DNA of 64,000 bases, taken from a virus. The notes beneath the pieces are model-generated. The model did not search any database. It saw only the letters and a program-made list of their open reading frames with translations, and was not told the origin of the DNA. The translations under genes and the position numbers were made by a program. Below are positions 6,675 through 61,246 of this stretch, piece by piece. Within the stretch, counting starts at the first letter, position 1, and each line of letters begins with the position of its first letter. The stretch is from positions 1 through 64,000 of IMG/VR virus record IMGVR_UViG_3300032163_000005; one strand, given 5' to 3'.

Positions 6675-6683
6675 CCACGCACT

Positions 6684-15272: not shown

Positions 15273-16196
15273 TCATCGCGATTTGCCGAGAAGCACTTCG
15301 AGAGCTCGATGATGAGCTGTCCACGCATCCACGAGATTGGAGAGTGACTCCACCATCTCCTTCACTCGGCGCCGCTCGGTTTCTTGCGCGTGCCACTCAT
15401 CCCCGAAGATGGCCGCCGCTTTCATCTTCACATCACCATCCGTGATTTGCTTGTTGCGCTGCTTCGCGTCCTTCTCCTCTTGAAGAGCTTTGGTCGCTTC
15501 AAGCCACATCGCACCGAAGATGACGTTGTTACGAGATTCCCACGACTCCTTCTCGACCTTCGCGGTCACAAAGATGCGATGTGCCTTCCGCATGTTCGAT
15601 GCCGCGTTGCCGAGTCTTGCCGCTAGAGATCCACGATCACTGTGATCGTCACCAAGATGGAGCTCCTTCTCGAGAACATCGTAGAGCCCACCAATGTCGT
15701 CCACGAAGACCGACTCGACCACGCGCTGAACATCGGGACGCAGGGGACTTTTCTTCGCTGCGTTCGAGACCTCGAAGTCGAATCGCTTGCGAGCTCTCGC
15801 GTGTCGTTCTTCTTCCTCTGTCTTGGCAATCTCTTTGGCGAGCTTGCCCGACGTCTCGAGGGCTGTTGCTTGTTTGGCTTTTTCGATTCGTTCATCTCGG
15901 GTTACTTGATCGAGCGATGCCGCTCCACCATGCGCATTCTCGCAATATGTGGTCTTCGGATCTCCCGATGGCGCGATGTACTGCGGTTCAAGACAAACCG
16001 CGCAGTAGAAGAATTCACCACCCACGACGTGTGGAGCTCCCAAGGGAGGTGGTTCAGTGAAATCTCCACTCTTCTTCTTACGACTCTTTTTCGCTGGCTT
16101 TGGGTCCTGTGGTTCGAAGGGATCATCCGTGGCATCCGGGATGCTGGGGATGTCAAAGGGATCAGTGGCAGGTGGTTGAACGAGACGTCTAGCCAT
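15273..16196 (-). CDS. zinc-finger/coiled-coil protein, possibly a UvsY-like recombination mediator
   Basis: CAVC...CENAH; C-terminal helical KQITDGDVK region; lies between Pol and SSB; start at 16196 (MARRLV) or 16202. Confidence 0.4.
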   Translation of the reverse strand: MARRLVQPPATDPFDIPSIPDATDDPFEPQDPKPAKKSRKKKSGDFTEPPPLGAPHVVGGEFFYCAVCLEPQYIAPSGDPKTTYCENAHGGAASLDQVTRDERIEKAKQATALETSGKLAKEIAKTEEEERHARARKRFDFEVSNAAKKSPLRPDVQRVVESVFVDDIGGLYDVLEKELHLGDDHSDRGSLAARLGNAASNMRKAHRIFVTAKVEKESWESRNNVIFGAMWLEATKALQEEKDAKQRNKQITDGDVKMKAAAIFGDEWHAQETERRRVKEMVESLSNLVDAWTAHHRALEVLLGKSR

Positions 16197-19100: not shown

Positions 19101-19656
19101 CGTCACCATTCCACGCGAGGACTTGATCGTAGGGTTCGAGCGCCTTCCAAAGCTCGCTGACAAGTGTGGCTTCCGCACGGTCCGTATCTTCCGCAAGGAT
19201 GTTTCGCGCGACGAGACCTTGGACTTCGTCCGTGACTGTCCAAGAGAGGATGCGCGCTTGATCCTTTCGCGAGAAAGGCACGCGCGAATCCGTCTCGAGG
19301 TCGAAGTAACAGCGATTCGGTTTCCCAATCGGCGTGTCAGTGTCCGTGAGGTAACGGCGAACAGGATCTACGTCGCCCTCGAAATGCTCGAGCCCATGAC
19401 ACGCGAAAAATCCCTCTCGCTGCGTCGCAATCCGACGCGACTCCGGACCGAGAAATCCAATCCGAAGCCATTCACCTTCTCTGCGGATCGATTTGACGGC
19501 CGCGGATGACCGCAGCCCATTTTCGATGTTGGTCGAAACCTTGTCTGCTCGAAGGAAGACAACCCACTCTGCCGAAACGGATCGAACGACTCTCTTACCC
19601 GACGAGCGAGTTACGAGTGCGAGCCGATCGCCATCAACGAATGCGTTCAGAAGCAT
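16189..19656 (-). CDS. family B DNA polymerase with 3'-5' exonuclease, intein-interrupted
   Basis: Exo motifs DLE, NGDGFD, YNTKD; pol motifs DFSRMYPS, KSTINAFYG, YSDTDS, KRY, KGLE. Confidence 0.93.
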   Translation of the reverse strand: MLLNAFVDGDRLALVTRSSGKRVVRSVSAEWVVFLRADKVSTNIENGLRSSAAVKSIRREGEWLRIGFLGPESRRIATQREGFFACHGLEHFEGDVDPVRRYLTDTDTPIGKPNRCYFDLETDSRVPFSRKDQARILSWTVTDEVQGLVARNILAEDTDRAEATLVSELWKALEPYDQVLAWNGDGFDFPVLGARTDHLRVKADPRLWLWLDHLLLFKKMNMHAAESGDEKRSMKLDAIAQAVLGEGKDNFDARKTWEAWEAGGESRARLLEYNTKDAILLPKIEAKKGFALLFDAIAQACSVFPDTSGLAPTRQVDGFMLKLGMKHGKHFASRVYREGAGEKQYKGAQVVKPKIHGIGRDIHVCDFSRMYPSIMLTFNMSPETLTSAPVNGPLPPNTCRCPTTGETFRTDVQGLLCIALLELIGQRDFWNKKKASLQPGTAEWHDADSRSSALKSTINAFYGVFGNAFSRYFDWRIAESITQTGVWLIKQTINAIEERGWEVVYSDTDSSFVRGCTKQEFSVFVAWCNTDLYPPLIAKCGCAINDISIAYEKAYDRLIFSNAKRYCNPPEAPIWMADGSFKQLDDVRVGDVVFGWVDGKWGVGRRQPGKKTVTRKRIFGSDRSRRKLTTSEVVAVHRHRATIVRVTFESGRVLRCTPDHRWRIHGRSGTYSDYVPAKVGRIISHVVDQPRRLSFDEQRAADWLGGIWDGEGSLASDNRGQILISQSRIKNPEVCTRIEESIKKLGWNYGVRTQRSAGNDCETFNIHGSLQERLEFITWCRPAKAGRMAKSLFKSRFSNPDCVVSVVPDGEGEVIGLTTTTGNYVVWGFASKNCATYSHYKGKAPKPLPQLDEKFDPDKHSHPEVKGLEYKRGDATKLAAKLQERAIHMLMLGEERISEYEDLAEQALDHVLNDPLPLEEVVQSAGLSKGLKEYKTKAKKDGSEGADIIHVAIGKELAKRGYQMGEGQRVEWVIMDSTTTPMTAVPAEDYKGECDRFYVWENRVWKPTQRLLEAAFPDHLWRRLERIRPQKGRHKPPPKDQAAFDFPVEKPSVRIPPRMLPREPFRQIDLSKPDFTMTTTPWELHLSDLDDFGVLREVLLRFPGTRPVKIVVHLQDGVRALADSKLTVDGSSALDRSIEGARENAWFAAMTYANG
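16440..16465. repeat. perfect palindrome, copy 1 (inside the pol CDS)
   Basis: GTTTAGACAGATCGATCTGTCTAAAC. Confidence 0.9.
17158..17958 (-). mobile_element. intein (267 aa) with a LAGLIDADG-like motif
   Basis: Starts CNPPEAPIWMADG; block B TPDH; WLGGIWDGEG; ends GFASKN followed by +1 Cys. Confidence 0.88.
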
Positions 19657-22178: not shown

Positions 22179-22382
22179 CTAGTCTCGAAGTCGAAACTTG
22201 ATCGCCCACCAAGCCCGAATCTTTTCTACGTCTTCCTCAAGCTTGAAGACCTTAAGCTGTTTTCGCAACCACGAATGTGTGATGCCCAGAGTCTTCGCCG
22301 TGCGATTGAGGTTCCCGCCGTGATTGTCAATCGTTTGAAGAATGGACCGTCTCCATTCGGCCCGCGCTATCGCATTGCGCAT
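22179..22382 (-). CDS. Fis-type HTH protein
   Basis: HGGNLNRTAKTLGITHSWLRKQLK. Confidence 0.75.
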   Translation of the reverse strand: MRNAIARAEWRRSILQTIDNHGGNLNRTAKTLGITHSWLRKQLKVFKLEEDVEKIRAWWAIKFRLRD

Positions 22383-23287
22383 AGGGACAACTCTATCAAC
22401 TCGTTGAGCTCCGTTGGATCCATCTGATCGGCATCACGGCCCTTCGGAAACTGAAGACGGTGGTTGTAGACCTGTTGGCGATCGAGCACCCATCCAATCT
22501 GCTCAGCAAGCTTGTCGCCCGCGGGATCGTTGTCCGTTGCGATGATGACCTCATCGAATGTCGCGAGCTTGAGCGCGATCGTTGCTCCAAGATCACTTCC
22601 TGAAGTCACCGCGAGATTGATTGGGTTCACACGTTCAACCGCGAGCGCCTTGATCGCGCCTTCAAGCACAATGACGGGACCTTTACTCCAAAACTGCTCC
22701 CCAAAGAGAACACCTCGATTGGCGCGCTCGAATGCTTCTGGTTCGAGATAGCGCTTCGGATGATTGACGAACGTACGTGCGGTGTATCCCGATAGTTGGC
22801 CACGCTTGTTCCGAACAGGAATGACGATGCGACCTTCAAGCCTTCCCTCGATGGCGTAACCCATTCCCCACTTGTCGACTTGTGATGACGTGATACTTCG
22901 TTTCTCCGCAAACTTCCGAGCCGACGTCACCCACCGTGACATGGGACTGAGCTCCACACCCTCCGGAAGACGAAAGGCCGTTCTCGTTCGAATGGCGAGC
23001 TCTACGCCTGCAGGTGGAGGCGCCGCCAGCTCTTCGGACTCGAGCCATTTTTGCGCATCTCGATACTTGAGATCGAGGACCGTCCGAACGAGATGGAGAA
23101 GCCCGCCCCCGAATCCGCATGGCCAACATTTGTGGAACCCTTCGCGTGGACCGCCCGGATCGTCACGGATGCGCCACGAAGGCTTGTGGTCGTCGTGTGA
23201 TGGGTTGGGACAGAGCGCCACCCATTCTGGCCCGTGCTTGGTCGCTTCGATTCCAAGCCGCTTGAGAATGCTCTCAACACGCGTCAT
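22367..23287 (-). CDS. DnaG-like primase (CHC2 zinc finger plus TOPRIM)
   Basis: CPNPSHDD..PS, CWPCG, RIVIP, EG, DNDPAG, DAD. Confidence 0.85.
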   Translation of the reverse strand: MTRVESILKRLGIEATKHGPEWVALCPNPSHDDHKPSWRIRDDPGGPREGFHKCWPCGFGGGLLHLVRTVLDLKYRDAQKWLESEELAAPPPAGVELAIRTRTAFRLPEGVELSPMSRWVTSARKFAEKRSITSSQVDKWGMGYAIEGRLEGRIVIPVRNKRGQLSGYTARTFVNHPKRYLEPEAFERANRGVLFGEQFWSKGPVIVLEGAIKALAVERVNPINLAVTSGSDLGATIALKLATFDEVIIATDNDPAGDKLAEQIGWVLDRQQVYNHRLQFPKGRDADQMDPTELNELIELSLCAMR

Positions 23288-24965: not shown

Positions 24966-25193
24966 CTAACGCGGAATTGGAACAGGCGACGTTTGATCGT
25001 AAGTCTCGGGATGCTCCTCAACGGTCATCAGAATCAATCGCACTTGCATCGGATCCATCGATAGCTCACTCACAATTTGTTCTGGCGTTTTGCCCTGATC
25101 ATGAAGCCAACGCAGCACACGTGCCCGGTGGTGCAGATAGACGGCCCATGGGTGAGAAGTCTTCGTGAGATCAGTGCTTGGAGGTGCGATCAC
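24966..25193 (-). CDS. small HTH-like protein
   Basis: QGKTPEQIVSELSMDPMQVRLIL. Confidence 0.5.
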   Translation of the reverse strand: MIAPPSTDLTKTSHPWAVYLHHRARVLRWLHDQGKTPEQIVSELSMDPMQVRLILMTVEEHPETYDQTSPVPIPR

Positions 25194-25732
25194 GTGCCCT
25201 GCTCCTTACGCGAATGACGCGGACTGAACTTTTCGACTTTCCAATCGGTGAGCAACGTCCGCGCGAACATCAGTCGCCACGTGATGCGAAAGTGTGGGCG
25301 CTGATTTTCAATGCGCCACTTGTGTTTGCTCGCTTCACGTTTCCACGTCCACCGAAAGAATTCCGCCATGATGTTGGCGTCATTATCGAATTCGTTCTTA
25401 AGCATGCGCGCCGCCGCACACGCTGCGAATTTGCGCTCTTTGGTTCCGAGCTCGCCTGGCTCTACGCCATAGACATGCGTGTGAAGCCCTTGGTAGAGCG
25501 CGACGAACACGAGTGGCTTTGCTCCCGCCCAATCCTCTGTCTCCGTCCGCTTCTCAGCTTCGGCGAGAGCCTTGTTCATCGAGCTCGATGCCACTCCGTT
25601 TCTTGGAGGAGTCTTCGACTTGTTGGCTTGCGCCCAATCACCAAGGGATGCAGGAGGTTTGGATTCTGGTTCATCCAGGTAACCCTTCGCCGCCAAGATC
25701 TCGGACTGAGGATCTCTCTTGCGCGCGGTCAT
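25190..25732 (-). CDS. hypothetical replication-region protein
   Basis: 180 aa ORF coupled to its neighbours. Confidence 0.5.
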   Translation of the reverse strand: MTARKRDPQSEILAAKGYLDEPESKPPASLGDWAQANKSKTPPRNGVASSSMNKALAEAEKRTETEDWAGAKPLVFVALYQGLHTHVYGVEPGELGTKERKFAACAAARMLKNEFDNDANIMAEFFRWTWKREASKHKWRIENQRPHFRITWRLMFARTLLTDWKVEKFSPRHSRKEQGT

Positions 25733-37488: not shown

Positions 37489-38604
37489 TTAGTACATGAA
37501 GCCGGATCGACCGATACCAGGAACGAATCCTGTTGGGTCGATTGACGATCCGCTTGCTTGTGCAGCAAGAGCCGCACTGACCCCACCAAAAATTGGCGTG
37601 AAGGTGAGAGGCCACGTGAAGTAACTCCCGCCTGCTGTCGTGGGTGTGCTTGGAGTAGGGCTCGCTGCGAGGAGAAGCATCGCAGACAGCGCTGTGTCGA
37701 ATGCTTGAGGGAACGGACTTGGAACGGTGGAAAGAAGCTTGCCCGCCGCTCCGAGCTCAGATGCCAACGTCGTTGATCCTTGGGGACCTGCAAGGAGGAT
37801 CGTCCAATTGATCAAGAGCGAGAGAACCTGCTCGAGCGTCACCGCGTGTTGAAGAGCTCCGCCTGGCACAACACCAAGCCCTGACATAACACCAAGCCCT
37901 GACGTGCCAATGGAAAGCGTGCCGCTTGTCGTGAGGATCGAAGAGACCGCATCAAGAAGAAAGCTCGTGACGTTCCCTGCAGTCAGAATGATCTGTTGTT
38001 CGGCCACGAGCATTTGCATGCTCGTTGAACCATCCGCGGTCGACATGCCCACGGCATCCGCGCCCATGAAGAAGCGTGAGCCATCACCATCGTTGAAGAT
38101 GACCTGTCCCGTTTGGTCGATGCCGAACTGAGCTCCCGTAACTGCACTCCGAACGAGGTAGCTCGAAGACGTCTCGAGAATGAATGGCGTGCGCATTCGC
38201 CTGAACGCGAACGTGTTCTCAGTGACGTCCTGCCCCGCAACCACGAGCGGAAAGGTGTCGAGCTCGTTGTTGAGGCGTCCGACGATGACGGGCGCTGCGT
38301 GCGTGTTGCCTTCTGGAATGACGATGATGACTTCATCACCTTGAAGGAATGGCGCCCAGTCAGCCTCTCCAATGCCTCCGACTCCTCCGGCAACACGGCA
38401 TGTGATGGGGATGCCCGAAGGATGAAGCAGAACAGAGATCAGCGGGCCTTCTGGAAACGGCAAGCCTTCTTCGTCTTTGAATCGAACGCTGTGTGAGTCG
38501 GGAGAATCTTCAGCGATGGTGCCGTAGCTCACCCAACTTCTCGTATCGATGCCTGGTCCTTTGACGGCTTGTCGAAGTAGCGCGAGATCGAGGAAGTTGT
38601 GCAT
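37489..38604 (-). CDS. baseplate central spike (gpV/gp5-like OB-fold)
   Basis: PFLQGDEVIIVIPEGN...PVIVG followed by beta-repeats. Confidence 0.75.
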   Translation of the reverse strand: MHNFLDLALLRQAVKGPGIDTRSWVSYGTIAEDSPDSHSVRFKDEEGLPFPEGPLISVLLHPSGIPITCRVAGGVGGIGEADWAPFLQGDEVIIVIPEGNTHAAPVIVGRLNNELDTFPLVVAGQDVTENTFAFRRMRTPFILETSSSYLVRSAVTGAQFGIDQTGQVIFNDGDGSRFFMGADAVGMSTADGSTSMQMLVAEQQIILTAGNVTSFLLDAVSSILTTSGTLSIGTSGLGVMSGLGVVPGGALQHAVTLEQVLSLLINWTILLAGPQGSTTLASELGAAGKLLSTVPSPFPQAFDTALSAMLLLAASPTPSTPTTAGGSYFTWPLTFTPIFGGVSAALAAQASGSSIDPTGFVPGIGRSGFMY

Positions 38605-40319
38605 TACTTCTTGCCTGTCGGCATTGTGGTGCCGTCGTCGAGCGGGGCGTCTGCGCGCGCTTCGACGTAGTTGATCCCACTGAGATCAATTGAGACGCCT
38701 TCATCGATATCCCACGTCACGCTCATCTGTTTCAAACGGAAGACACGCTGAAACCCTGCATTCGTGTAGGCCTTTGCTGCCTTCTCCGCGAAGTCTTGCG
38801 TGTACCCAATCGATTTGAGCCGCGTGATCGTGCGTTGTGCGTTCGAGAGATCATCTTCAATGACGCCTTGAACAGTGTAGGGACCACGATCGATGATGAT
38901 TTTGAAGTTGTCGCCAAACTTCATGTCGAGCAAATCAGGATCAGACGCGTCGCCTCCGAAACTCGACATGTTCTTGGTCTTGAGCTGAATGAGGAGCTCG
39001 TTACGAAAGACGTTGTTGTAATAGTCCTCCGCAATGCGCTTGAGTGTCGGTTCGTCTTTGACGCCCGCTACGAGAACCACTTTCCAATGCTGTTCTCCCG
39101 CGCCACCAGGCAGAGGATGTGTGGGACGATCCTTCTTCTCAGGGAATCGCGCTACCAGCGTTTTCTTTCGTCCTGGAAAGGAGCATCGACACTCAATGCC
39201 CTTTGCTTCTTGATGCGTGTACTTGTGGCTCACCTTCATCTCTGAGATGTTGCGACCCCACACGAACGTCCGAACGTCGTAAGCGCCACTCTCTCGAATA
39301 CGAGGAAAATAGGGATCACCCTCTCGCGGCGTTGCTCGCCCATCGAGAAGCGACGTCGCACGTTGGATGATGATGTGCAGATCCTCGACACGGATCGTGT
39401 GGCCGGTCATCTTGACCACAACATCGAGGTAATCCCACACGGTGTTATCGTCACCGCCCCCGCCCTGACTCGGGGGTCCTAGGTTGGCATCGTGCGCAGC
39501 ATTGTTGAGCACATCTTTGAGAACAGGAATTTTTGAACGTTCGAGCTCCGCAGGCCGATACTCCACCGTCATGCCAGCAAGCTGAGGAAACTGCTTCAGG
39601 TATTCCGCGATGGCTTCATCGATCGGCTTTTTGATGTCGATCTTTCCACCCATGGGCTGTTGTTGCTTCAAGAGAAGTCGCGTGTAGTCCGTACATTTGA
39701 GACTGATGATGGGTTCATCGTCCGTCCAGCTCATCTCCCACTCATCGACCCATCCTCGAAATCGGCGGTTTGATCGAATCACCCCGCGTTGGTCACGGAA
39801 TGTGTCTTGAATGAGATTCATCGGAATGTGCGCGCCTTCGGTCGTCTCGCCTTGGATTCCTCTCGCGAATTCATTCGCGGGGATGGTGCCTAGGTAGAAG
39901 TCAACCGCGCACGACCGGATGATGCGTGGATCAAGCGGCATGTCGAGCCACTTGATCTCAAGATCAAGCTGGTCTCCATTCTGGATCCCATTGACATGCC
40001 ATGTGGCTTTCTTCGGGATGATGCCTTGGATGTCGCTCGTGAGCTCGTCGATACTCGTGGTGCCCACAGATGTCTTGGTCGTGGGTGTCGTGGGACCTGC
40101 GAGCAAGAATCGTTTGACGCCTGTTGGCGCGCTTGGATCATCCACAACCTTGAGTGCACCACGTGGGTCCTTGTTGCCCTTGATTTGTGTGATGGGCTTG
40201 AGGTCTCGAATCTTCGCGATATCTGCCGATCCACTGTATTTGAATTCGTCAAAGCGAATCGCAAGCGTGACGCGTGCACTCGGATAAAGGGTCTGTGGTT
40301 CGTACTCAAGCGGCGGCAT
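38604..40319 (-). CDS. baseplate hub (gpD/gp27-like)
   Basis: FRGWVDE, CTDYT; lies between LysM and spike genes. Confidence 0.7.
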   Translation of the reverse strand: MPPLEYEPQTLYPSARVTLAIRFDEFKYSGSADIAKIRDLKPITQIKGNKDPRGALKVVDDPSAPTGVKRFLLAGPTTPTTKTSVGTTSIDELTSDIQGIIPKKATWHVNGIQNGDQLDLEIKWLDMPLDPRIIRSCAVDFYLGTIPANEFARGIQGETTEGAHIPMNLIQDTFRDQRGVIRSNRRFRGWVDEWEMSWTDDEPIISLKCTDYTRLLLKQQQPMGGKIDIKKPIDEAIAEYLKQFPQLAGMTVEYRPAELERSKIPVLKDVLNNAAHDANLGPPSQGGGGDDNTVWDYLDVVVKMTGHTIRVEDLHIIIQRATSLLDGRATPREGDPYFPRIRESGAYDVRTFVWGRNISEMKVSHKYTHQEAKGIECRCSFPGRKKTLVARFPEKKDRPTHPLPGGAGEQHWKVVLVAGVKDEPTLKRIAEDYYNNVFRNELLIQLKTKNMSSFGGDASDPDLLDMKFGDNFKIIIDRGPYTVQGVIEDDLSNAQRTITRLKSIGYTQDFAEKAAKAYTNAGFQRVFRLKQMSVTWDIDEGVSIDLSGINYVEARADAPLDDGTTMPTGKK

Positions 40320-40328
40320 CGCACCAAT

Positions 40329-41627
40329 CTAGAGCGAACTGGGGTGATTGCCGAGTGCTGGGATGATGAGCACAGCACCAGGCAGAAATGATGGCTGGTA
40401 AAGCGGAAGCTTGTTCGCTCGAAGGATGTCGGATCCGTGGTCGGGCGTCTTGTAATACTGAATCGAGACCTTCTGAGGTGTGTCGCCTTCATGGCAAACA
40501 TGGACGCCGAGAACCTGTCCCGCCCGCGTCGTTTGCGACTCTTGGACCGAGATGACGGGAGCTCCTCCACGCTGCACGAGTGGAGCTCGAAGACGAAGCG
40601 CCAGATCTCGCGAAGATTCGGCTGTGAGTCGTGCTTGCTCGGCAACAGACGCGAAATAACGATTCGCTCGAAGCAGTGATGCCACGCGCGTCTTGTTGGC
40701 TTGAACCTCGGGTGGTTGTCGCCCAAGCGTATCGATCAAGTTGATCGCGATGGACTGCGTGTTTTTCGCAAGATTGATGAAGCTGCCCGTGATGGCCGCT
40801 GGCTGCGTTCGAAACGTGTTGATGACTGAGCCAAGCTGTTTGATCTGCGAGACGTTCTGTTGGATCTGCCGATTGAACGAATTGACGGCTTGAAGTGGTG
40901 CGTTGGCGAGGGCTTCGAATTGCCCAAGCGAGAATTTGACTGCGCTTTTTCGAACGTCTTTTTTCGCCTTCACGATCGATGACTCAAGCGCGAAATTGAT
41001 GCCTGCTGCGTTCACAAGAAGTGCGTTCGAGGCTGCATCGAGATCTTCATCCGATCGAACGCTGACCACGCGGTCTTGAGTGCCGCCACGTGATGCCCAG
41101 TTGAATTCAACAGTCCATCCAATGTCCGTGTGACGGATGAATGAAAAGTGCGCGTTCTTGATCAGGCCTTCGCGAAGGATCTGCGTGTTCTTGAGTTGAG
41201 AAAACCCGCTTGCGCTGTTTCCTTGGCCTTCGTTCGCATTGACAGACCACGTCACGCGAAGCCGAATACCTGAACGACCAATGAGCTCGAACGCCTCTCG
41301 GAGGCCTTGTGGATCGATGATTGAAACTTCGGCGCCTTGATCGTTGGTGAACCGACATGGGGTTCTGCTGAGACGCGTACGACGCCAATCGCCTTGCCAC
41401 GTGGAAGGGAGCTCGCGTGGTCCTAGGTTTTGCTGCGTCGCCTCAACGGGGTTACCTGGATACCATGTGGTGATGACGTTGTTTTCGAAGGCCCACTCCG
41501 AGCCCATGAAAGGAAGCCCCGATCCCAAGAGCACGATGCGACGTGGCTTCTTTCCCGGTCCTGCAGGACCAGTCTCCTCGATGATCAACGTAGAGTCGTA
41601 ACCGAGGGTTGTTGGATCGAAGGGCAC
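40329..41627 (-). CDS. tail tube initiator-like protein with C-terminal LysM domain
   Basis: HVCHEGDTPQKVS..YY....ILRAN....GAVLIIP. Confidence 0.7.
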   Translation of the reverse strand: MPFDPTTLGYDSTLIIEETGPAGPGKKPRRIVLLGSGLPFMGSEWAFENNVITTWYPGNPVEATQQNLGPRELPSTWQGDWRRTRLSRTPCRFTNDQGAEVSIIDPQGLREAFELIGRSGIRLRVTWSVNANEGQGNSASGFSQLKNTQILREGLIKNAHFSFIRHTDIGWTVEFNWASRGGTQDRVVSVRSDEDLDAASNALLVNAAGINFALESSIVKAKKDVRKSAVKFSLGQFEALANAPLQAVNSFNRQIQQNVSQIKQLGSVINTFRTQPAAITGSFINLAKNTQSIAINLIDTLGRQPPEVQANKTRVASLLRANRYFASVAEQARLTAESSRDLALRLRAPLVQRGGAPVISVQESQTTRAGQVLGVHVCHEGDTPQKVSIQYYKTPDHGSDILRANKLPLYQPSFLPGAVLIIPALGNHPSSL

Positions 41628-41630
41628 GAA

Positions 41631-41837
41631 TCACGCTCCGCGTTCCAACATACTCCGCGCCCACAACTTGAGGGGGTTGGGCTTGCCGCCCTTCACGTTG
41701 GGCGCATCCTGACCGGAAGGTGAGAGGCTTTCGGATTCGTCCTCCAAATCGCTTGGAGAGACGTCTTCATCGAGGGGTTGTCGCGCTCCGCTACGGGGGT
41801 TCAGAGCCGTTTTGCCGATCATGGTGGGCATTGCCAT
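41631..41837 (-). CDS. small disordered protein with C-terminal LKLWA motif
   Basis: 68 aa; has its own TAGCTT box 6 nt before the ATG. Confidence 0.5.
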   Translation of the reverse strand: MAMPTMIGKTALNPRSGARQPLDEDVSPSDLEDESESLSPSGQDAPNVKGGKPNPLKLWARSMLERGA

Positions 41838-41858
41838 ACCCCAAAGCTATCACGTGCC

Positions 41859-47718: not shown

Positions 47719-48558
47719 TCACTCCGAATCCCGCGGTCCGAATGGATCGCAGGGATCGGGAACGAACGGTTTTTCAGCGTCAATCAAGAGCTGAATGCGC
47801 GGATCAGTGGGTTGTGGGTCTTGGAGCTGAATGAGGTCGTTCGTCTGCGGATCAGCATCCACTGCAACTTCGGCCTGAACGGTGACCGGTAGATAGTTGA
47901 CCAAGCTCACGAGCGTGAACCGCATGTCGAGCGTGAGTCTGGCGCGTCGTCGGTTCAGAACATTGTCCGGTTCATCGAAGAGCTCGCGCTGTTCGAGCGA
48001 GAACGAAACGAGCTGATTGAAGTAGTCGGGCACTCGAAACCGAAGGGCGTAGCTCTGCTCAGATGGTGAGAACGCCGCTTCGAGTCCAGCGAGGATGGCG
48101 CGTCGTTCCGCCTTTTTTGCACACCAAATCTCGATGACGAGATTCTCTATGTACTCGGATTGCCACTGAATTACGGTGCCTTTGGCATAGACATCGCGCG
48201 AGTCTTCTTGCAGGTAAGTGGAGAATCCGATCGTCTCGTACGCAACCGGCACGTTGCCCGAGATGAACGCGATGGATGGGAATCGAAGGTCCGACTCGTT
48301 GTCTGGCCACTCGATGTGGATGTCATCGAGTGGGATCTGAAAGTCGATGGGAGCTCCGCGCTTCTTCGTGGTGCGGTCAACGTCACCTTCACGGAAGAAT
48401 GTGAGCTCGGAGATGTAGCGTGCGAGGATGCGAAGACATGCTGTGCGACCATCGGCCGCGGGTGGGGGCGGATTGGGCTTGGGCGGAAATCCGACAGCTC
48501 CCCAAGGAGTACCTTGAAAGAGCTTCAGAAGGCCGTCTGAGAGCTTGGGGATGCCCAT
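47719..48558 (-). CDS. tail terminator/completion protein
   Basis: FPSIAF..IEIW..ERRAIL; upstream of the sheath. Confidence 0.55.
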   Translation of the reverse strand: MGIPKLSDGLLKLFQGTPWGAVGFPPKPNPPPPAADGRTACLRILARYISELTFFREGDVDRTTKKRGAPIDFQIPLDDIHIEWPDNESDLRFPSIAFISGNVPVAYETIGFSTYLQEDSRDVYAKGTVIQWQSEYIENLVIEIWCAKKAERRAILAGLEAAFSPSEQSYALRFRVPDYFNQLVSFSLEQRELFDEPDNVLNRRRARLTLDMRFTLVSLVNYLPVTVQAEVAVDADPQTNDLIQLQDPQPTDPRIQLLIDAEKPFVPDPCDPFGPRDSE

Positions 48559-49094
48559 TACTTGAAGCTCTTTCCAAGAGCTCGTTGGAGCTCCTTCTTG
48601 AGGTAGCCTTCAAGACCTTGAAGCCCCTGCTCGAGGATCCGAAGCCCGCCTTTGCCACCTGCCGATCCGCGATTGAAGATGCCCTTTTTCCTCATGCTAT
48701 GCGCGATGGCGAATGCAACGCCACGAGCGGCGTCAGTCGCGCGTTTACCCTTACCTCCAACCAACCCCTTTCGCTTGGCCCATTTCGCGAGCGCATCGAT
48801 CATCACGCGACCTGGTTTGACGTTGGCTGCGCGTACGCCGCCCTCGATAAGCGGCGCTTGTACTGACGCGTTGATGATGTCCGCACCTCGTTTGGTAGAC
48901 CGAACACGCCACGCTGCGCGATAGATGCCGCGATCTACAGGTGGAGGTTTTTGCGCGGGGATGAGTCGTACCTGTATGTCTTGAACGATGTGAAGAGCTG
49001 CAGCATGGATGGCAGTGTGTGCGGCTTTCTCAAACCCCTTCGTGATGTGGATTTGAATCTGCCCTGCTTCGTTGCTCTCGAACCGCTTGGACAT
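48558..49094 (-). CDS. neck/tail-completion protein (HK97 gp10-like)
   Basis: PVDRGIYRAAW, A..IEGG, basic composition. Confidence 0.65.
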   Translation of the reverse strand: MSKRFESNEAGQIQIHITKGFEKAAHTAIHAAALHIVQDIQVRLIPAQKPPPVDRGIYRAAWRVRSTKRGADIINASVQAPLIEGGVRAANVKPGRVMIDALAKWAKRKGLVGGKGKRATDAARGVAFAIAHSMRKKGIFNRGSAGGKGGLRILEQGLQGLEGYLKKELQRALGKSFK

Positions 49095-49125
49095 GGTTCA
49101 GAGCATAGCGCGGCATCAATGGGAT

Positions 49126-49770
49126 ATGAGCAAACGAGAATGTCCGGTTTGCCTTCGCATTCGGCGAGCATGCATTTGTCGTTCAACGCGCTGTGAAGAC
49201 TGCAACCTTCCCAACCGTGAGTGTTGGTGCCGTCACTTCGATCCCAACACCAAAATTCTGACATTTGAAGAGTCGGAGAAATTCCCTGCGTTGATCCGAG
49301 ATTTGTCGGTCATTCAGGTTCAACAAATCTCCGATGCTCTCGATCACCATCTCGAGCGCATTCTTGGTCCCGACGTCCGAGGAGCGTGCACCTACGCATA
49401 CGATGTCGATGGCAACATCACGTTGCTTTGCTTGTTCTGGATCCAGTGGACTCAATCAGCTTCATCGGTAGAGAACGAGCGAACACTCTCAGTGACTCCC
49501 AAAGTTTGGCAAGATCGCAAAGAGATCATGCAAAAGGAAGGTGTTTCCTACCAACAATCCGCAGGGATCCCATCCGGTGTGCGTGGGTTTTTCGCGCGAT
49601 CCGTTTTGGGAATCATCGAGAAATTCGATGTCACGAATCTCAAACCAACATCGTTCCAAGAGTTGATCGATCTTCTACACGTCCTATACGACGCTTGCGA
49701 AGAGACCAAATTCATCGGGCACTGGCAGGACTCTGTGTTCTCGATTGAAACTGACTGGCATGAGGTCTAG
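49126..49770 (+). CDS. antisense-oriented accessory protein with Cys-rich N-terminus
   Basis: ATG 49126 (MSKRECPVC...); fills the gap between minus-strand genes. Confidence 0.55.
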   Translation: MSKRECPVCLRIRRACICRSTRCEDCNLPNRECWCRHFDPNTKILTFEESEKFPALIRDLSVIQVQQISDALDHHLERILGPDVRGACTYAYDVDGNITLLCLFWIQWTQSASSVENERTLSVTPKVWQDRKEIMQKEGVSYQQSAGIPSGVRGFFARSVLGIIEKFDVTNLKPTSFQELIDLLHVLYDACEETKFIGHWQDSVFSIETDWHEV

Positions 49771-49919
49771 CGCGGCGGATGGATACTCCGCTCGACGACG
49801 CTCTTCTCACCCGTCTTCGGATCGGTTCGTTGCTCGATGACCACGATGGGTGTCTTCGGCTTTGTCTTGATAAAGGCCGGCCGCCGACCTCGACCCCGAA
49901 TCTCAATCTCACGTCTCAT
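49767..49919 (-). CDS. small basic protein (50 aa, not in ORF track)
   Basis: MRREIEIRGRGRRPAFIK...; ATGA overlap with the upstream gene. Confidence 0.4.
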   Translation of the reverse strand: MRREIEIRGRGRRPAFIKTKPKTPIVVIEQRTDPKTGEKSVVERSIHPPR

Positions 49920-50215
49920 TGATCACCCTTCGGTTGCCACCAATCGGAACAATACGTTGTCGGAGACGCAGGGAGCTCCGCGCCGCCATTCCACTGTTGG
50001 AAGTTGGGCTCGTTACACGTTCCCTGTTCCCCATCAATCGCCACGAACCGACAATTGGAACATGACGATCCGCCTTCTGGGACGTTCATTCCGGGAAGGT
50101 GCCCTGCGGGAAGTGTGGCGGTTCCAAGGTTGACATCTTGTGCCAAAGGAAGACGCGCCTTTGAGTCTTGTGGTCCGCCCACCACCGACGACGCCCATTG
50201 CCGAATATCAGGCAT
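49916..50215 (-). CDS. small Cys4 (HiPIP-like pattern) protein with N-terminal IRQWA
   Basis: CSNCRF...GTC...YCSDWW. Confidence 0.5.
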   Translation of the reverse strand: MPDIRQWASSVVGGPQDSKARLPLAQDVNLGTATLPAGHLPGMNVPEGGSSCSNCRFVAIDGEQGTCNEPNFQQWNGGAELPASPTTYCSDWWQPKGDQ

Positions 50216-50639
50216 TGCTCACGCTTTCATCGTACTGCCGTCGATGCATCCCATCCCACGGGCCATTCGATGTTGGGGTGTTGGCAACATACGCCGGAAC
50301 AGACAATCCTTCACGTTGATACGCGAGTGCTCGATGATGCCCATCCACTACCGTCACTGTTTTCGCGTTCGGCTTCTGAATGAGGATGATCGGCTTTCTC
50401 CAACCATTCCGAATCTTCATCTGAAACGACTCGACACGCGATGGTTCTTTGGTCGCTGTCCAACTCTCGCGATCGGAGAAGTCGATGTCCGAAAGAGGCA
50501 CGTTCGTTGGCCCTTTCCACGGCACCGATCGCACCCATGAGCGAGCTTCGGGCGGATAGTCTTCAGCCAGCTCGACATAGAGCTTCTCACCAATCGCGTT
50601 GGTCTTGGCCGTTGCCCACTTTTTCAGATCAGATGCCAT
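50208..50639 (-). CDS. ParB/Srx N-terminal-domain protein with N-terminal LKKWA
   Basis: PIILI...VVDGHHRALAY; no HTH; ATG 50639. Confidence 0.7.
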   Translation of the reverse strand: MASDLKKWATAKTNAIGEKLYVELAEDYPPEARSWVRSVPWKGPTNVPLSDIDFSDRESWTATKEPSRVESFQMKIRNGWRKPIILIQKPNAKTVTVVDGHHRALAYQREGLSVPAYVANTPTSNGPWDGMHRRQYDESVSNA

Positions 50640-51303
50640 CACGCGATTCACTACTCAGATGCCCATCACGTTGCCGATCTTCACTCATGCGTTCGAGCGT
50701 GATCATCCATTGAAACTTCCCTGGATCACGAAATGGCGATGAGAGAAGTCGGAACCGCTTGCGCGTTGAGTTGGGTCTGTCTTCGACAATCTCGTAGAAG
50801 AATTCGAAGGGCTCTTCCACGCGATCACGAACGCGCACGAATGGCTGCCCAATCATCTCCGAGCTCGTTCGCGCCAGTATGTCGGGTGGGAGTGCTTGCC
50901 CCGCGCCGATGTGCGGAGCTCCGCAAGCATCGAGATAGGGCTGTGGGGGTATCTGCTTGCCCATCAGAACGTCTTCCGTAAGCTGCCCAGTGATTTCCTC
51001 AACCCGGACGCTTCCGACTGGCAGAAGGCCTGCTGAGTAGGCTGAGAGGCTCACGCTGGTCAGATCGATGACCTTGGGCCTTGGGAGAATGGGAACTTGA
51101 GCAAGGATGGTTTCGTGGCCTTCCCCTCGCTCGAGTCCGCCCCATCGCGTCCAAACGAGAAGAACGACGTAATTCCTCAGACCGAAGCTCGTGAAGCGTT
51201 GACGAAGCTTGTCGACGGTTGGTTGCAGCCTCTCAACAAGCGGAGGACCGCACGCGCCACGTGTGGCGATGCAAGTCGTACAAATGCCGCATGCGCAAGC
51301 CAC
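50629..51303 (-). CDS. head closure/head-tail joining protein
   Basis: Position plus a W.I.LER C-terminal strand. Confidence 0.45.
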   Translation of the reverse strand: MACACGICTTCIATRGACGPPLVERLQPTVDKLRQRFTSFGLRNYVVLLVWTRWGGLERGEGHETILAQVPILPRPKVIDLTSVSLSAYSAGLLPVGSVRVEEITGQLTEDVLMGKQIPPQPYLDACGAPHIGAGQALPPDILARTSSEMIGQPFVRVRDRVEEPFEFFYEIVEDRPNSTRKRFRLLSSPFRDPGKFQWMITLERMSEDRQRDGHLSSESRDGI

Positions 51304-51573
51304 TTAGAACTTCTCCGGACCTTCGTGACTTGGTGGCCCTGACTTCGACCACAATCGCTGGAATGAAACGGGAACCGATGTTTTTTTGGACTTCGGATTT
51401 GCTCGTGGACGTGTGTGATCGATTTCGATTTGCGTTCCCGACATCCCGCCGTTTTTTTGAACCGACTCAACGTGAAAATAGATGTCCTTGTCGCTGAAAG
51501 ATTGGATGTACCACTCTCCAACCTGCATCGATCCGCCGCTCTGCGCAGCCGCCCATTGTTTGATCGCTGCCAT
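51304..51573 (-). CDS. small beta-rich protein with N-terminal IKQWA
   Basis: 89 aa, coupled ORF. Confidence 0.5.
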   Translation of the reverse strand: MAAIKQWAAAQSGGSMQVGEWYIQSFSDKDIYFHVESVQKNGGMSGTQIEIDHTRPRANPKSKKTSVPVSFQRLWSKSGPPSHEGPEKF

Positions 51574-51575
51574 GC

Positions 51576-51776
51576 CTAAGCCGCTTTCTTCCGACGTTCA
51601 GCCCACTGCTTCGCACGTTTGGCGGGCACGAGCCCATCATCAGCCATCTCGAGGTCGTGTGCCGCTTCTTCTCCCCCGGTCTCTTCACGTTTGGAAGCAG
51701 GCTTTCTGGACGTCCAAATGGCGTGCTTCTCATCAAGTTTTTTGATGGCCTCTGCCCACTTCTTGATCGGAAGCAT
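51576..51776 (-). CDS. small protein with KxWA at both ends
   Basis: MLPIKKWAE...AKQWAERRK. Confidence 0.5.
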   Translation of the reverse strand: MLPIKKWAEAIKKLDEKHAIWTSRKPASKREETGGEEAAHDLEMADDGLVPAKRAKQWAERRKKAA

Positions 51777-52071: not shown

Positions 52072-52491
52072 TCACCCCGCTACAGGCACGTTGATCCCAC
52101 CATCGGCCGACAGAACCCATGCCCTCTTGTCCCACGGATTGCGAACGATGCCTAAGAGGTTCTCGAGCATGCCCAATCCGATGGAATAATACTGTGCGAG
52201 CTCGCGAAGCCGTTTTCGATTGATCGTGATGGTGTCGAGCACTTCAACGTCCGCGAGATCAGATCCGCAGAAGACTTGGTTCTCAATCGCATCAAGCCGA
52301 CAGAGGATCTGGCGAAACTTCTCAATCGCACCCGGTGTGCTCATGATGCGATCAAGCGCGCCTTCGATCATGAATGACGTCTGCATCGCCGCAGGAACGC
52401 CAAGCTGAAACGTCATCACGCTTTCCACGTTATGATAACCCAAATGGTGGCGTGCTCGGACTTTCTCCTCAGGGGTGACGACGGCCGGCAT
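52072..52491 (-). CDS. head-tail adaptor/connector
   Basis: EEKVRARHHLGY N-terminus, helical, downstream of the capsid gene. Confidence 0.55.
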   Translation of the reverse strand: MPAVVTPEEKVRARHHLGYHNVESVMTFQLGVPAAMQTSFMIEGALDRIMSTPGAIEKFRQILCRLDAIENQVFCGSDLADVEVLDTITINRKRLRELAQYYSIGLGMLENLLGIVRNPWDKRAWVLSADGGINVPVAG

Positions 52492-54731: not shown

Positions 54732-55643
54732 TTAGAAATTCCAACCGTTCTGCCTCTTGAAGTCACGCCATTCCTTGTCGTTGACGCTTCCCGCCTGTCC
54801 CGGCGCGAATGTCTTCGGCGCTGCAATCCCCGCAGGATTCACATTTTGCGGACGCTGAATGTTCGCACCATTCGTCAATGGTTGTCCTGGAATGGGTACT
54901 GCGGGAGTGGGTGCTACAACCGGCCCAGCGCCGCCAATGGCAGATCCGCCCGTTGATGGAATGGCCAACGCTCCATCTTCCGCAACCGCGCGCTGACACC
55001 ACGCTTGAACCACGGCATCTGGATCAGCGAGCTCTGCATCTGAGAGTCCTGAGATGTACTCTGCAAGATTCTTGAGCTCGTGCTTCATGTACCGCGGGTT
55101 GATGTGTTGCGCGACGATCGCAACGACATGGTGGTCTTGCTCGGCCACTACACGTTCGGTTTGCACCTGTTCCGCGCGCGTCTCTGCTTCGACCGCACGA
55201 CGTTCAGCCGCCGCAAGTTGTTCGGTGAGTCGCTGCGTTTCCGTGAGGTCAGCGAGTCGTCTCTCTTCTCGCTCCGCGCGCATGACACGAAGCTCATCGA
55301 GGTCCGCTCGAATCTGATCAACGTTGTCCGTTCCGAATCGCTCGCGAAGTTGTTTTTTCGCGTATCGATCGAGCCGTCCTTTGAGAGCTGTTGGCGGGAG
55401 CTCGATGAGATCGGCGTCGTTGGGGATGTCGTCAGCATCACCAATTAGCTTGCGCGTTGGGACTCGCCCCGCGGGAGCTGGAATGGGAACGGGGATGGCG
55501 GGCTGGGCTGGCGCAGCAACGGGAGGAGAGACGGGAGGTGGTTGCTGCGCTTGCTGTTGAACGGGCGGGGTTGGCGCCTGTTGTGGTGTGCTCGCGCCAC
55601 CAGGGGGCTGTTGCCCCACTCCCGTATCTCCTTGCATCGACAT
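54732..55643 (-). CDS. capsid scaffolding protein
   Basis: P/Q-rich ends, central coiled coil, directly upstream of the capsid gene. Confidence 0.7.
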   Translation of the reverse strand: MSMQGDTGVGQQPPGGASTPQQAPTPPVQQQAQQPPPVSPPVAAPAQPAIPVPIPAPAGRVPTRKLIGDADDIPNDADLIELPPTALKGRLDRYAKKQLRERFGTDNVDQIRADLDELRVMRAEREERRLADLTETQRLTEQLAAAERRAVEAETRAEQVQTERVVAEQDHHVVAIVAQHINPRYMKHELKNLAEYISGLSDAELADPDAVVQAWCQRAVAEDGALAIPSTGGSAIGGAGPVVAPTPAVPIPGQPLTNGANIQRPQNVNPAGIAAPKTFAPGQAGSVNDKEWRDFKRQNGWNF

Positions 55644-58281: not shown

Positions 58282-58443
58282 ATGATGATGAACACGGATG
58301 CTCATGGGTGTTTGACCATCACCTTCTCTCGTGCACAGATCTACGCACTAATGCGCCGTTCGCGTCCTCGCGCAAAACATCGCGTGATCAAGAAATGGGT
58401 CAACGCGTTCTTCCGAAACTGCCAAGGTCCACAGTCGTCATGA
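58282..58443 (+). CDS. small basic antisense ORF (53 aa, not in ORF track)
   Basis: GCGGCAAGAAGGA then ATG; RRSRPRAKHRVIKKW. Confidence 0.35.
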   Translation: MMMNTDAHGCLTITFSRAQIYALMRRSRPRAKHRVIKKWVNAFFRNCQGPQSS

Positions 58444-59410
58444 GAGGACGTGGTGGAGCTGCACCCTTTCGTTTCTCAAGCTTCCATCGCGCGTGAATCT
58501 CACCATCAGGCCGCCAAGCAAGTGTTGGCGGAATTGGCCATGATTGACGGTGTGTGACGACGATTTCACGATCGTTGGGACGATTGGGCGGATGTTGCAT
58601 CAATCCAAACCACGTCTCGAATGGCTCGTTTGGACGACGGATCTCGCCATGGCACGCGATCGAATCGCTACCCGTCCGATTGTCGAACGTCGCGCAAAGA
58701 ATCTTCACGAGATCTCCGAGTTGTTCGTGTGCTTCCTGCGTCGCTTCGAACGTCGCACGCCCATACGCGCCCATCGTCTCTGTACGAACGATGCGCTCTG
58801 ACCAAGACGCGGGAGCTCCTTGCAAAAAGGGACTCGCATCAACAATCTGTTTGCGCGTGTCTTCGAACGATGAACGTGTGAGGAGATTCGTTCGAAGAAT
58901 GTTCTCGAAGTGTCCAACCACGTTCATTCCGTAACGTTGAAGAATGCCGATTCTGGCTTTGTGCGGCTCGGCATCTGCTCCCTCGGCAGGTGTGCCACTT
59001 GAGGCAAGACGTCGGAGCACACTTGCACGAGCTCCCGATGTCGCGGCATCCATGATCGAGGATTCGTCGAGCGCGAGAGCTTGTGTCCCGATGCCCTTGT
59101 ATTGCCGCTCGGCTGCGTTGAGGTAATCGACTGTTCCTGTAGCTGCGACGCTTGCCGCTTGCTCTGCGCCATCGATTGCGAGATCACGCATTCCAGGAAG
59201 CACAAGCCCACGAAGCACATCTCGAATCTGCGCCAACGTCGCGCGCATTCGAATTTCCGTGAACGTGCCTGTTGGAGGCATCGCACGAAGCCGCTCCACG
59301 AGTTGAGTCTCAGCATCTTTGAGCATTCCTCGCGTGTTGGTTGTTCCAACCCGTTGCGCAATTCGAATCGCCGTTTCGCGATTAGCTTGGATGGCTCCTA
59401 GAACGCTCAC
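58400..59410 (-). CDS. minor head morphogenesis protein (MuF/SPP1 gp7-like)
   Basis: ERIVRTE, DNRT, HG, PPNRPNDR (HPNCR-like); after the portal; no C-terminal toxin domain. Confidence 0.8.
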   Translation of the reverse strand: MSVLGAIQANRETAIRIAQRVGTTNTRGMLKDAETQLVERLRAMPPTGTFTEIRMRATLAQIRDVLRGLVLPGMRDLAIDGAEQAASVAATGTVDYLNAAERQYKGIGTQALALDESSIMDAATSGARASVLRRLASSGTPAEGADAEPHKARIGILQRYGMNVVGHFENILRTNLLTRSSFEDTRKQIVDASPFLQGAPASWSERIVRTETMGAYGRATFEATQEAHEQLGDLVKILCATFDNRTGSDSIACHGEIRRPNEPFETWFGLMQHPPNRPNDREIVVTHRQSWPIPPTLAWRPDGEIHARWKLEKRKGAAPPRPLMTTVDLGSFGRTR

Positions 59411-61221
59411 GATTCCTCAGGATTGAGTCCTTCGTCTGGAACACCCTGATCCGGCATTACCGGTTGTGGCGGGCCCCCTGGCGCCACAGCGCCACCAATG
59501 CCAGGGAACATCTCCGCCTGCTGCCCCGCCATCTTGGCGCCTTCTTCCTCCATGCGCTTCTTTTCCTCAGTGGGCTGGACTCCAAAGGCCGCCGCTGCGA
59601 GCTCCACAGCCGTCTCTTCGCTCATAAAGGCTTTTCCGCCAGTCGCCGCAGTGAGATTTGTCACCATCTTGGTTTGATCATCAGGCGTTGGTGGGAAGTA
59701 GGGGGGCCATTGAAGATTGACCTCTCCACCATCGCCAGGCTCACGCGGAATCTTGACAGGACGTGGCGGTAGCGGCGTTCCCGTTACAGGATCAACTAAT
59801 GGGAGCTTGCTGATTGGATCGAGTGTCTGTGATTGCTCGATGCGTGGTGGAAGAAGAAGAACCGGAGGTGGTTGAATCGCGGGTTGGCCCATCTCATCGA
59901 TCACGGGTTGGCCCATCTCATCGATCATGGGTTTGGGCTCGCGAAGATTTCGACGTGCAACCTCGCCCATGTTGGTCAGAATGCGTTCAAGCGCTGTTCC
60001 ATATTGCTCACGAAGTACATCTGTCTTTGAGAGCATCGGTGCATAGACCACCTTCATCGCGACGCTCGAGACGCCTTGCGCTGCGATGTCTGCAGGATCG
60101 GGAACCACGCACTGGGCCGTCTCGAGCACAGTGCGTCGAAACGATTCAATGAGCTTCGTTCCCGCTTCTAACGATGTGCCTGAGAGCTCGAGATAGTCCG
60201 CATCACCAGACTCGCCAACGACGAGCGCATGCTCAGATCCTTTGAGCACGCCGGAACGCGAGACGAGCTCAGGATCAAGTTTCAACTTGAGCGTTGGATC
60301 GAGATTGAGTGTGGCGCCTTTGAGCACAACAGACATGAGAATGTCCATTGCATCGAATTCCTGAAGGAGGCCTTCGTAATCTGGGAACCCATCAATCTCG
60401 TCAGAGGGAAGATTCTGAATCCACTCGAAGTGAATGACACCATCGCCATGCGCGATGCTCTTTTGCTCGTCAATTTCCCAGAATGGATCCTTGTCCTTTT
60501 CGTAGAGCGCATCTTTGAAAATGATATCAGCGTCGGGCGTCCAATCGCGACGAAACCAATAGTAGACCTTGATGAATTCCTTCTTGGAGCCATCCCATTG
60601 CACGCGAAAGAATGTGTAGATCTCCGTCACGTGATCAGGAATGAGAAGGCACCGATCGGCCCACGCGTGAACGTAGAGGTTCTTGGCATTGTGGACCTCG
60701 AACCGAGGGCGGCCTTTGTAGAATGCCCACGACACACCCACCGTGCCCATGGATCCTCCGAGCGTGCGAGCTCGGATCATGTGCATTGGAAGTCGGCCTA
60801 CGCGCGAAACAGTCTGCAAAAAGTCTTCGTCACGTTCGTCGCCATCAACATGGATCTGCGGAAACCGATTCTCGCCAAAGATGAGGCTCGTGAATGAGTC
60901 AACGATGACTTTCGAGAGGTGGTACCGCGCGCTTGGGCGACGTGACGCGAGCGGAACAAATTGGTGAAACTTCTCCGCGCTGATGATGGGAACTGTTGAT
61001 TGCGGACTGAAGACACGACCCTCGAAGTCGAAGCCCTTGTGATTGTGCTGCGAGCCTCGATAGTGCGCTTCGAGACGATCGAGCTCGTAGTACCGCTCAC
61101 CCACGAGAAGAGACCGGGGCTGAATGCCCGGCATCGTGGTGTTGCGAGCTCCGAAGCTTGAGAACGCGAGTGCATTCTTGCCATCGATCGCGATTGCGCC
61201 GGCTTGCGAGAGATTCGCCAT
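59407..61221 (-). CDS. portal protein (SPP1 gp6-like)
   Basis: 604 aa; K.IVD, S.VAMK.., MSEETAVE; upstream of MuF. Confidence 0.8.
   Translation of the reverse strand: MANLSQAGAIAIDGKNALAFSSFGARNTTMPGIQPRSLLVGERYYELDRLEAHYRGSQHNHKGFDFEGRVFSPQSTVPIISAEKFHQFVPLASRRPSARYHLSKVIVDSFTSLIFGENRFPQIHVDGDERDEDFLQTVSRVGRLPMHMIRARTLGGSMGTVGVSWAFYKGRPRFEVHNAKNLYVHAWADRCLLIPDHVTEIYTFFRVQWDGSKKEFIKVYYWFRRDWTPDADIIFKDALYEKDKDPFWEIDEQKSIAHGDGVIHFEWIQNLPSDEIDGFPDYEGLLQEFDAMDILMSVVLKGATLNLDPTLKLKLDPELVSRSGVLKGSEHALVVGESGDADYLELSGTSLEAGTKLIESFRRTVLETAQCVVPDPADIAAQGVSSVAMKVVYAPMLSKTDVLREQYGTALERILTNMGEVARRNLREPKPMIDEMGQPVIDEMGQPAIQPPPVLLLPPRIEQSQTLDPISKLPLVDPVTGTPLPPRPVKIPREPGDGGEVNLQWPPYFPPTPDDQTKMVTNLTAATGGKAFMSEETAVELAAAAFGVQPTEEKKRMEEEGAKMAGQQAEMFPGIGGAVAPGGPPQPVMPDQGVPDEGLNPEES
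59881..59927. repeat. 24-bp tandem duplication in the portal CDS (IDEMGQP x2)
   Basis: GGGTTGGCCCATCTCATCGATCA occurs twice. Confidence 0.8.
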
Positions 61222-61246
61222 AAGCCCACTCTAACGCAGAATGGGT

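Follow-up and report, generated by a model that had tools for sequence, protein, structure and literature searches.

Why do about a dozen otherwise unrelated small proteins of one uncultured ~94-kb bacteriophage carry the same short peptide at one end? The question arises from a 64,000-nucleotide stretch of viral DNA, here called the window, which comprises positions 1-64000 of the 94,023-bp IMG/VR record IMGVR_UViG_3300032163_000005 and in which five minus-strand open reading frames (ORFs; starts at 51776, 51573, 50639, 50215 and 6674) all open with the motif [LI][KR]xWA. A previous interpretation of the window (the sequence-only reading) regarded this peptide as a modular N-terminal docking helix that loads stand-alone effectors into the capsid for injection into the host. 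The known loading routes for free-standing effectors are limited to a few models, those of phages T4 and P1. Here, we describe a comparative analysis of the peptide, which we refer to as the tag. The tag is restricted to protein termini, is conserved at the level of the peptide, is portable between ends and between unrelated domains, and is absent from embedded forms of the domains that carry it. With modest confidence, these properties lead us to favor the view that the tag docks its carriers non-covalently, in place of their fusion to head proteins.

The record has direct terminal repeats, and nearly all genes lie on its minus strand. Genes were called on the whole 94,023-bp genome (120 genes, with predicted starts); coordinates are given in window numbering for the tagged proteins T1-T5 and the structural genes, and in genome numbering for members beyond 64 kb. 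Thirty related loci were retrieved with the capsid protein (46-70% identity), and four complete relatives (G001-G004) with the same capsid and MuF proteins give, together with the phage itself, five complete genomes. The G+C content of the phage is 55.6%, versus 64-68% in the four relatives, which suggests a different host group or strong drift.

All five ORFs exist at these starts and begin as had been described, and the C-terminal copies of the motif reported for the 51576 and 41631 ORFs were also found. Among the 120 called proteins, the pattern [LIV][KR]xWA has nine matches within 16 residues of the N-terminus and two near the C-terminus, and a single match in 24,561 internal positions. 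The sequence-only reading had proposed a comparison with shuffled controls; over 2000 within-protein shuffles the terminal count had a mean of 0.18 and a maximum of 4, so that the observed count of 11 is above chance. The tagged proteins, including looser and doubtful members, are as follows (lengths in amino acids, aa).

51576-51776, minus strand: T1, 66 aa, charged; tag at residues 4-8 and a looser second copy, KQWA, 11 residues from the C-terminus
51304-51573, minus strand: T2, 89 aa; tag at residues 4-8, then a Gly-Gly linker
50208-50639, minus strand: T3, 143 aa, predicted ParB/Srx fold (DGHHR); tag at residues 5-9, globular domain at 15-135
49916-50215, minus strand: T4, 99 aa; tag, then an LPxxHxPxMxLP segment, then a four-Cys domain
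5688-6674, minus strand: T5, zeta-toxin-like kinase of 328 aa; tag at residues 6-10, ahead of a leader of ~90 aa rich in Lys and Pro
41631-41837, minus strand: 68-aa acidic protein encoded after the putative tape-measure gene; C-terminal tag, a core member of the set
71450-71617, genome numbering: ORF with a C-terminal tag
71622-71852, genome numbering: ORF with an N-terminal tag
72264-72830, genome numbering: ORF with an N-terminal tag, then a Pro-rich linker
76702-77226, genome numbering: T8, a second ParB-like protein; tag at residues 15-19
85268-85684, genome numbering: doubtful member, VKKWA near the N-terminus
25190-25732, minus strand: doubtful member, a conserved replication-region protein with LGDWA ~30 residues from the N-terminus, partly conserved in orthologues

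The copies are encoded by different synonymous codons (ATC, CTG, ATT or TTG for Ile/Leu; AAG, AAA or CGG for Lys/Arg; GCA, GCG or GCT for Ala). Because the codons differ between copies, selection acts on the peptide rather than on the DNA, and a DNA-level repeat or regulatory site was ruled out on the same grounds.

Comparison with relatives redefined the motif. The strict [LI][KR]xWA-type pattern had no match in the relatives, whose motif reads LGxWA, which rules out a tag unique to this phage. The T4 homologues of G002 and G003 retain an LGxW tag, and in the G002 orthologue some 110 acidic or Pro-rich residues separate it from the Cys domain. T8 orthologues in G002 and G003 have the tag at the N-terminus, and that of G004 lacks an N-terminal tag and ends in L-Q-A-W-A. 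Additionally, in all five complete genomes the acidic, low-complexity small protein whose gene follows the putative tape-measure gene has an L-x-x-W-[AV] C-terminus, and this terminus is nearly its sole conserved part. Since the orthologues of relatives read LGxWA and swap ends, the conserved core, judged across these genomes, is L-x-x-W-A; it is terminal, may occupy either end, and is older than this phage. Thus the shared peptide itself was correctly recognized, and its proposed consensus and its description as an N-terminal tag of this phage were not upheld.

The proteins that bear the tag are diverse. The zeta-like kinase assignment of T5 held well above the threshold of the Pfam Zeta_toxin family (PF06414; 83.1 bits versus a cut-off of 22.3, E = 2.3e-23), with residues 95-265 covering positions 5-181 of the 199-position profile. 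A ParB/Srx domain in T3 was likewise borne out by an AF2 model with a mean pLDDT of 89.7 (confident residues 15-135), for which the top PDB matches in Foldseek were all sulfiredoxin, ParB, PadC, KorB or Noc structures at a probability of 1.00. In an alignment of 46 T3 sequences, D99, G100 and R103 are invariant and H101-H102 nearly so (the GxxR/DGHHR box), and both T3 and T8 are predicted nucleases of the ParB/Srx type. T4 had been likened to a high-potential iron-sulfur protein (HiPIP), an identity that found no backing: no Pfam match at E<=1 or PDB sequence match at E<=10 was obtained, and the AF2 model (pLDDT 38) is unusable. Its four Cys residues are invariant across three homologues, and the LPxxHxPxMxLP segment between the tag and the four-Cys domain is common to the T4 family (49916-50215; L039:9464-10039; L012:1827-2108). 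Pfam and PHROG searches gave no match for T2, and no homologue of T1 was found in the relatives.

The first ten residues of T3 have a mean pLDDT of 50 and no secondary structure in the AF2 model. The tag is thus modeled as an unstructured free end, not as a helix packed on the domain. Elsewhere in the set, Gly-Gly, Pro-rich or Lys/Pro-rich stretches come after the tag, and the predicted layout is that of a short linear motif on a tether.

The strongest indication of what the tag may do comes from proteins that contain the same domains without it. In polyvalent proteins, DdrB-type ParB and zeta-kinase domains are fused to MuF or portal proteins (Iyer et al. 2017; PMC5512222). The tagged proteins are not polyvalent, being single-domain or domain-free products of separate genes, and polyvalent forms occur only among homologues elsewhere. 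T3 without its tag (residues 16-138) shows 38% identity to a segment inside portal+MuF+NUDIX ORFs of ~1,100-1,300 aa. An exhaustive search returned 680 T3 homologues, and of the best 150, for which lengths were assessed, 105 are longer than 400 aa; a Pfam scan of 48 long ones detected portal families (12, 8, 1 and 1 members), Phage_Mu_F (10) and Mu-like_Pro (4), with NUDIX, ART and other effector domains also present. The closest short T3 homologue (57% identity) opens with the tag, and another short one has it at the C-terminus.

T8 and T5 present similar cases. For T8, the matching segment lies within MuF proteins of two sister phages, 837 aa long in L007 and 801 aa long in L026, and these embedded copies lack the tag. 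The DGHHR box is lost from this MuF-embedded T8-like domain (L007:1347-3857, L026:4412-6814) and is kept in all stand-alone tagged orthologues. For T5, the counterpart is a 690-aa ORF located between TerL and portal in a 110-kb phage: the C-terminal part of this ORF shows 42% identity to T5 (E 3e-63), and the residues of the tag align there to unrelated sequence. The best PHROG of T5 is a 'minor head protein' family of 1,440 positions. For T3, T8 and T5, as aligned here, the tag is missing exactly where the same domain is embedded in a larger head-module protein. Fused longer forms of T4 were searched for and not found.

The zeta homologues provide a further, larger sample. Among 119 stand-alone homologues of T5, a tag-like motif occurs within the first 70 residues in 33, with no match across the 35,669 residues outside that stretch; shuffling gave a mean of 2.6 and a maximum of 9. 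An HPRD..GRF-like peptide shares the leader with the tag in 20 of the 33, in either order, which may point to a limited vocabulary of address peptides for cargo. The HPRD motif is absent from the present genome and occurs once in G002. Both peptides stand together at a single site in the five genomes, a 277-aa frame of G002 (~18430-19260, minus strand, L039), just upstream of the T8 orthologue, with HPRG..GKF near its start and an internal GLGAWV.

The head and tail genes against which these proteins are to be considered are listed below.

59407-61221, minus strand: portal protein (phrog_64 portal, 1e-10)
58400-59410, minus strand: short MuF-like head protein, 336 aa, ending where the long polyvalent forms of relatives go on
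54732-55643, minus strand: putative scaffolding protein with a conserved C-terminal hydrophobic-x-x-aromatic-K-R segment
53130-54551, minus strand: major capsid protein (phrog_1357, 4e-15), a candidate receptor
52072-52491, minus strand: conserved gene upstream of the T1/T2 insertion slot
50629-51303, minus strand: conserved gene of the capsid-sheath interval that separates the T1/T2 slot from the T3/T4 slot, present in 29 of 30 related loci
48558-49094, minus strand: conserved capsid-sheath gene with a family-wide internal AL-x-x-W-[AV]-x-RKG segment
45060-47636: tail sheath (phrog_23), from which a contractile tail is deduced

The MuF-like protein, encoded directly after the portal gene, matches Phage_Mu_F (PF04233) at 20.5 bits (E 8.7e-4), under the cut-off of 29.6, and the PHROG 'head morphogenesis' family at 9.4e-6; it is 45-56% identical to proteins of relatives that show the same sub-threshold PF04233 match. 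MuF proteins of this family come in two size classes, a short one of ~330-360 aa and a long one of 800-916 aa that includes one protein with an ART domain. The long class diverges exactly at the end of the 336-aa protein, which, as had been noted, has no fused domain. The long form with an ART domain is the 883-aa MuF protein of G002 (L009:1684-4332), which ends in an NAD:arginine ADP-ribosyltransferase domain (Pfam ART, 1.8e-7). Since G002 encodes both this fusion and tagged stand-alone orthologues of T4 and T8, the two putative styles of loading coexist in one genome. The 635-aa MuF protein of the closest complete relative (L005:3513-5420) has an internal insertion of ~280 aa that splits the MuF match and contains a Hint/intein-like segment. 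Identity of the tag with the C-terminal I-x-A-R-W helix of the MuF core was considered and ruled out, as the spacing differs and the helix is present in short and long MuF proteins alike.

The genes beginning or ending at 52072, 50629, 48558 and 47719 are conserved and nearly contiguous in the closest relatives among the 30 loci, where the 48558 homologue comes directly after the 50629 gene. Because these flanking genes are so close together there, T1-T4 are, by this comparison, lineage-specific insertions in two slots between conserved capsid-sheath genes. Locus L014 has a different tagged gene, of 95 aa, in the first slot. The sequence-only reading had described four tagged genes as interleaved with head-tail joining genes; by position they are, and the flanking genes, conserved and adjacent in relatives, have no family name. 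The T3/T4 slot also contains a candidate plus-strand gene, an ORF of 232 aa with a Cys-rich N-terminus (49072-49770), antisense in the minus-strand structural operon, for which no family match above threshold was found.

From these observations we infer docking, a receptor, packaging and injection. L-x-x-W-A, usually followed by small or basic residues and a Gly/Pro/Lys-rich linker, would constitute a short linear docking peptide at either end of its free-standing carriers. These accessory proteins comprise the two predicted ParB/Srx-type nucleases, the zeta-type kinase, the four-Cys protein and several small charged proteins. The partner of the tag would be some conserved part of the virion under assembly, most likely one within the procapsid; candidate receptors are the inner surface of the capsid, the scaffold, the portal and MuF. 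Docked proteins would be packaged and then delivered along with the DNA. The tag would thereby stand in, non-covalently, for the covalent fusion to MuF, portal or head protease seen in polyvalent proteins of other phages.

Several results weigh against this proposal. The sole universally conserved tagged member is encoded in the tail module rather than the head module, and for this reason a capsid receptor is not established. Of the 12 tagged genes, five map away from the structural region, zeta among the replication genes and four others at 71-78 kb. Stand-alone T3 homologues elsewhere mostly lack the tag, and the 690-aa ORF related to T5 has no recognizable MuF or portal domain, so that its tie to the head is one of position only. 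VKKWA in the 85.3-85.7 kb ORF abuts a conserved family helix and may be no tag. The C-terminus of the scaffold loosely resembles the tag, yet falls below threshold in a scan with the tag profile; its mimicry of the tag is a weak idea, kept as a lead only. A head protease family was not detected in the head genes tested, which leaves a T4-like cleavable signal unsupported. Finally, the starts of the tagged genes rest on prediction: the 50639 ORF has an additional in-frame GTG four codons upstream, and two members beyond the window begin at GTG. Taken with the evidence above, the modular tag for stand-alone virion cargo draws comparative support from the untagged embedded forms, the switching of ends and the co-occurrence with HPRD..GRF; the capsid receptor and the helix that had been part of the same claim do not.

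Other explanations account for parts of the same evidence. The tag could dock to an intracellular hub, either a host protein or a component of a phage factory, and gather accessory enzymes with no role in packaging. Short terminal motifs on flexible linkers are typical of hub binding, the tagged genes are scattered over replication, unannotated and late regions, and a doubtful copy is found on a conserved replication-region protein; such a hub, however, leaves unexplained the absence of the tag from head-embedded domains, sister phages included, as well as the conserved tail-operon member and the co-occurrence with HPRD..GRF, and we regard it as unlikely. The receptor could also be in the tail (the tape measure, the tube lumen or the baseplate hub), with cargo that rides in the tail and exits before the DNA, much as contractile injection systems do with cargo bearing N-terminal leaders. 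In favor of this, the gene of the only member kept in all five genomes comes immediately after that of the putative tape measure, and a sheath gene is present. Against a tail receptor, the embedded counterparts are joined to portal, MuF or head protease, or lie beside terminase and portal, and are thus internal to the procapsid or part of the head module; T1-T4 lie among the capsid-to-sheath genes, not the tail genes, and the tape measure is expected to occupy the tube lumen. We consider this route quite improbable.

Very improbable, in our estimate, is a tag that serves as punctuation, a processing site or module-boundary spacer inherited from polyproteins and lacking a binding partner. Its co-occurrence with the HPRD..GRF peptide in zeta leaders would fit such a role. 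Cleavage three to five residues from the initiator Met or ~10 from the stop would, however, release nothing; the tag was looked for and not found at the module boundaries of the long MuF proteins of the family; and the negative result for a head protease in the head genes tested counts against processing as well. Common descent or chance, in which duplicated leaders or an effect on translation start would leave a functionless peptide, finds some encouragement in the several members that are small, lineage-specific and without homologues. The differing synonymous codons and the unrelated downstream domains speak against it, C-terminal copies cannot influence initiation, orthologues retain the core across 46-70% capsid identity while switching termini, and the shuffle tests of the whole genome and of the zeta set exclude chance; this explanation we judge to be extremely improbable. 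Docking to a component of the assembling virion remains the reading we favor.

Several other features of the genome were recorded. The tag-profile scan also matched SKxLKEYxTKxKxDG, a conserved segment close to the C-terminal portion of the family B polymerase (16189-19656, ~residue 957); the match, seen in G002, G003 and the present genome, probably has nothing to do with the tag. A late-type TAnnnT box had been reported ahead of the zeta and 41631 ORFs and the portal gene, and the sequence TAG[AC][GT]T is indeed present at -12 for zeta, the 41837 ORF and portal. It lies 12-13 nt before the ATG of five genes: zeta (box site 6675-6690), the 41837 ORF (41838-41853), portal (61222-61237) and the ORFs at 38604-40319 (40320-40335) and 22179-22382 (22383-22398). 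The genome minus strand has just 13 copies. The sequence could represent a -10-like box, with near-leaderless transcripts as the result, or a ribosome-binding site of an unusual kind. A second candidate tag, M-A-R-R, is real in that it opens seven ORFs, mostly replication genes (minus-strand starts in the window at 53005, 26238, 24959, 16196, 13739 and 8845), and is less consistent among the relatives, which have 2, 0, 4 and 0.

If docking is correct, injected proteins, including likely anti-defence factors, would be predictable from sequence alone in uncultured phages, and the interconversion of head-fused polyvalent proteins and solo genes would be accounted for. The tag would also offer a minimal means of putting foreign proteins into capsids.

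The closest precedent is the capsid targeting sequence of T4, a signal confined to the N-terminus and cleaved off by the prohead protease. It resembles the tag in being a short peptide common to unrelated proteins, including an ADP-ribosyltransferase effector. It differs in that C-terminal copies also occur here, a protease was not found in the head genes tested, and the sequences are unrelated. For the T4 internal proteins IPI-III and Alt, a short N-terminal peptide is sufficient for prohead loading and injection (PMC9024508, PMC5512222). In phage P1, a packaging signal in the first 30 residues of DarB directs the large effector, and a reporter, into the capsid, and the authors found no consensus among the Dar N-termini (PMC9024508). 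P1 shares with the present phage an N-terminal signal and, in DdrB, a ParB-type domain like those of T3 and T8; unlike the Dar proteins, about a dozen proteins here share one explicit consensus. No description of an L-x-x-W-A or MuF packaging signal turned up in the literature search. Relative to T4 and P1, and as far as the genes indicate, the tag differs in its explicit consensus over many putative cargos, its C-terminal use, and the lack of any sign of a protease.

Polyvalent MuF and portal fusions contain the same cargo domains in the same head-module context, and relatives of this phage themselves encode MuF proteins of 800-916 aa. Solo forms of these domains occur beside virion genes, for which that survey offers no loading mechanism (PMC5512222). 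In the fusions the parts are single polypeptides, whereas here they are separate genes accompanied by a short MuF. The layout of the tag, a terminal peptide on a linker at either terminus, resembles that of another system. In encapsulins, short cargo-loading peptides on a flexible linker, at either end of the protein, dock diverse cargo inside a shell with the HK97 fold, on its inner face. Encapsulins are non-viral and play no part in cargo delivery, their peptides are unrelated in sequence, and for the tag the capsid protein is a candidate partner only. Tentatively, L-x-x-W-A may be an encapsulin-like, transferable cargo-loading signal of a group of ~90-100-kb contractile-tailed phages, one that would pack about a dozen proteins, including two predicted nucleases and a kinase, and that could load foreign proteins as well.

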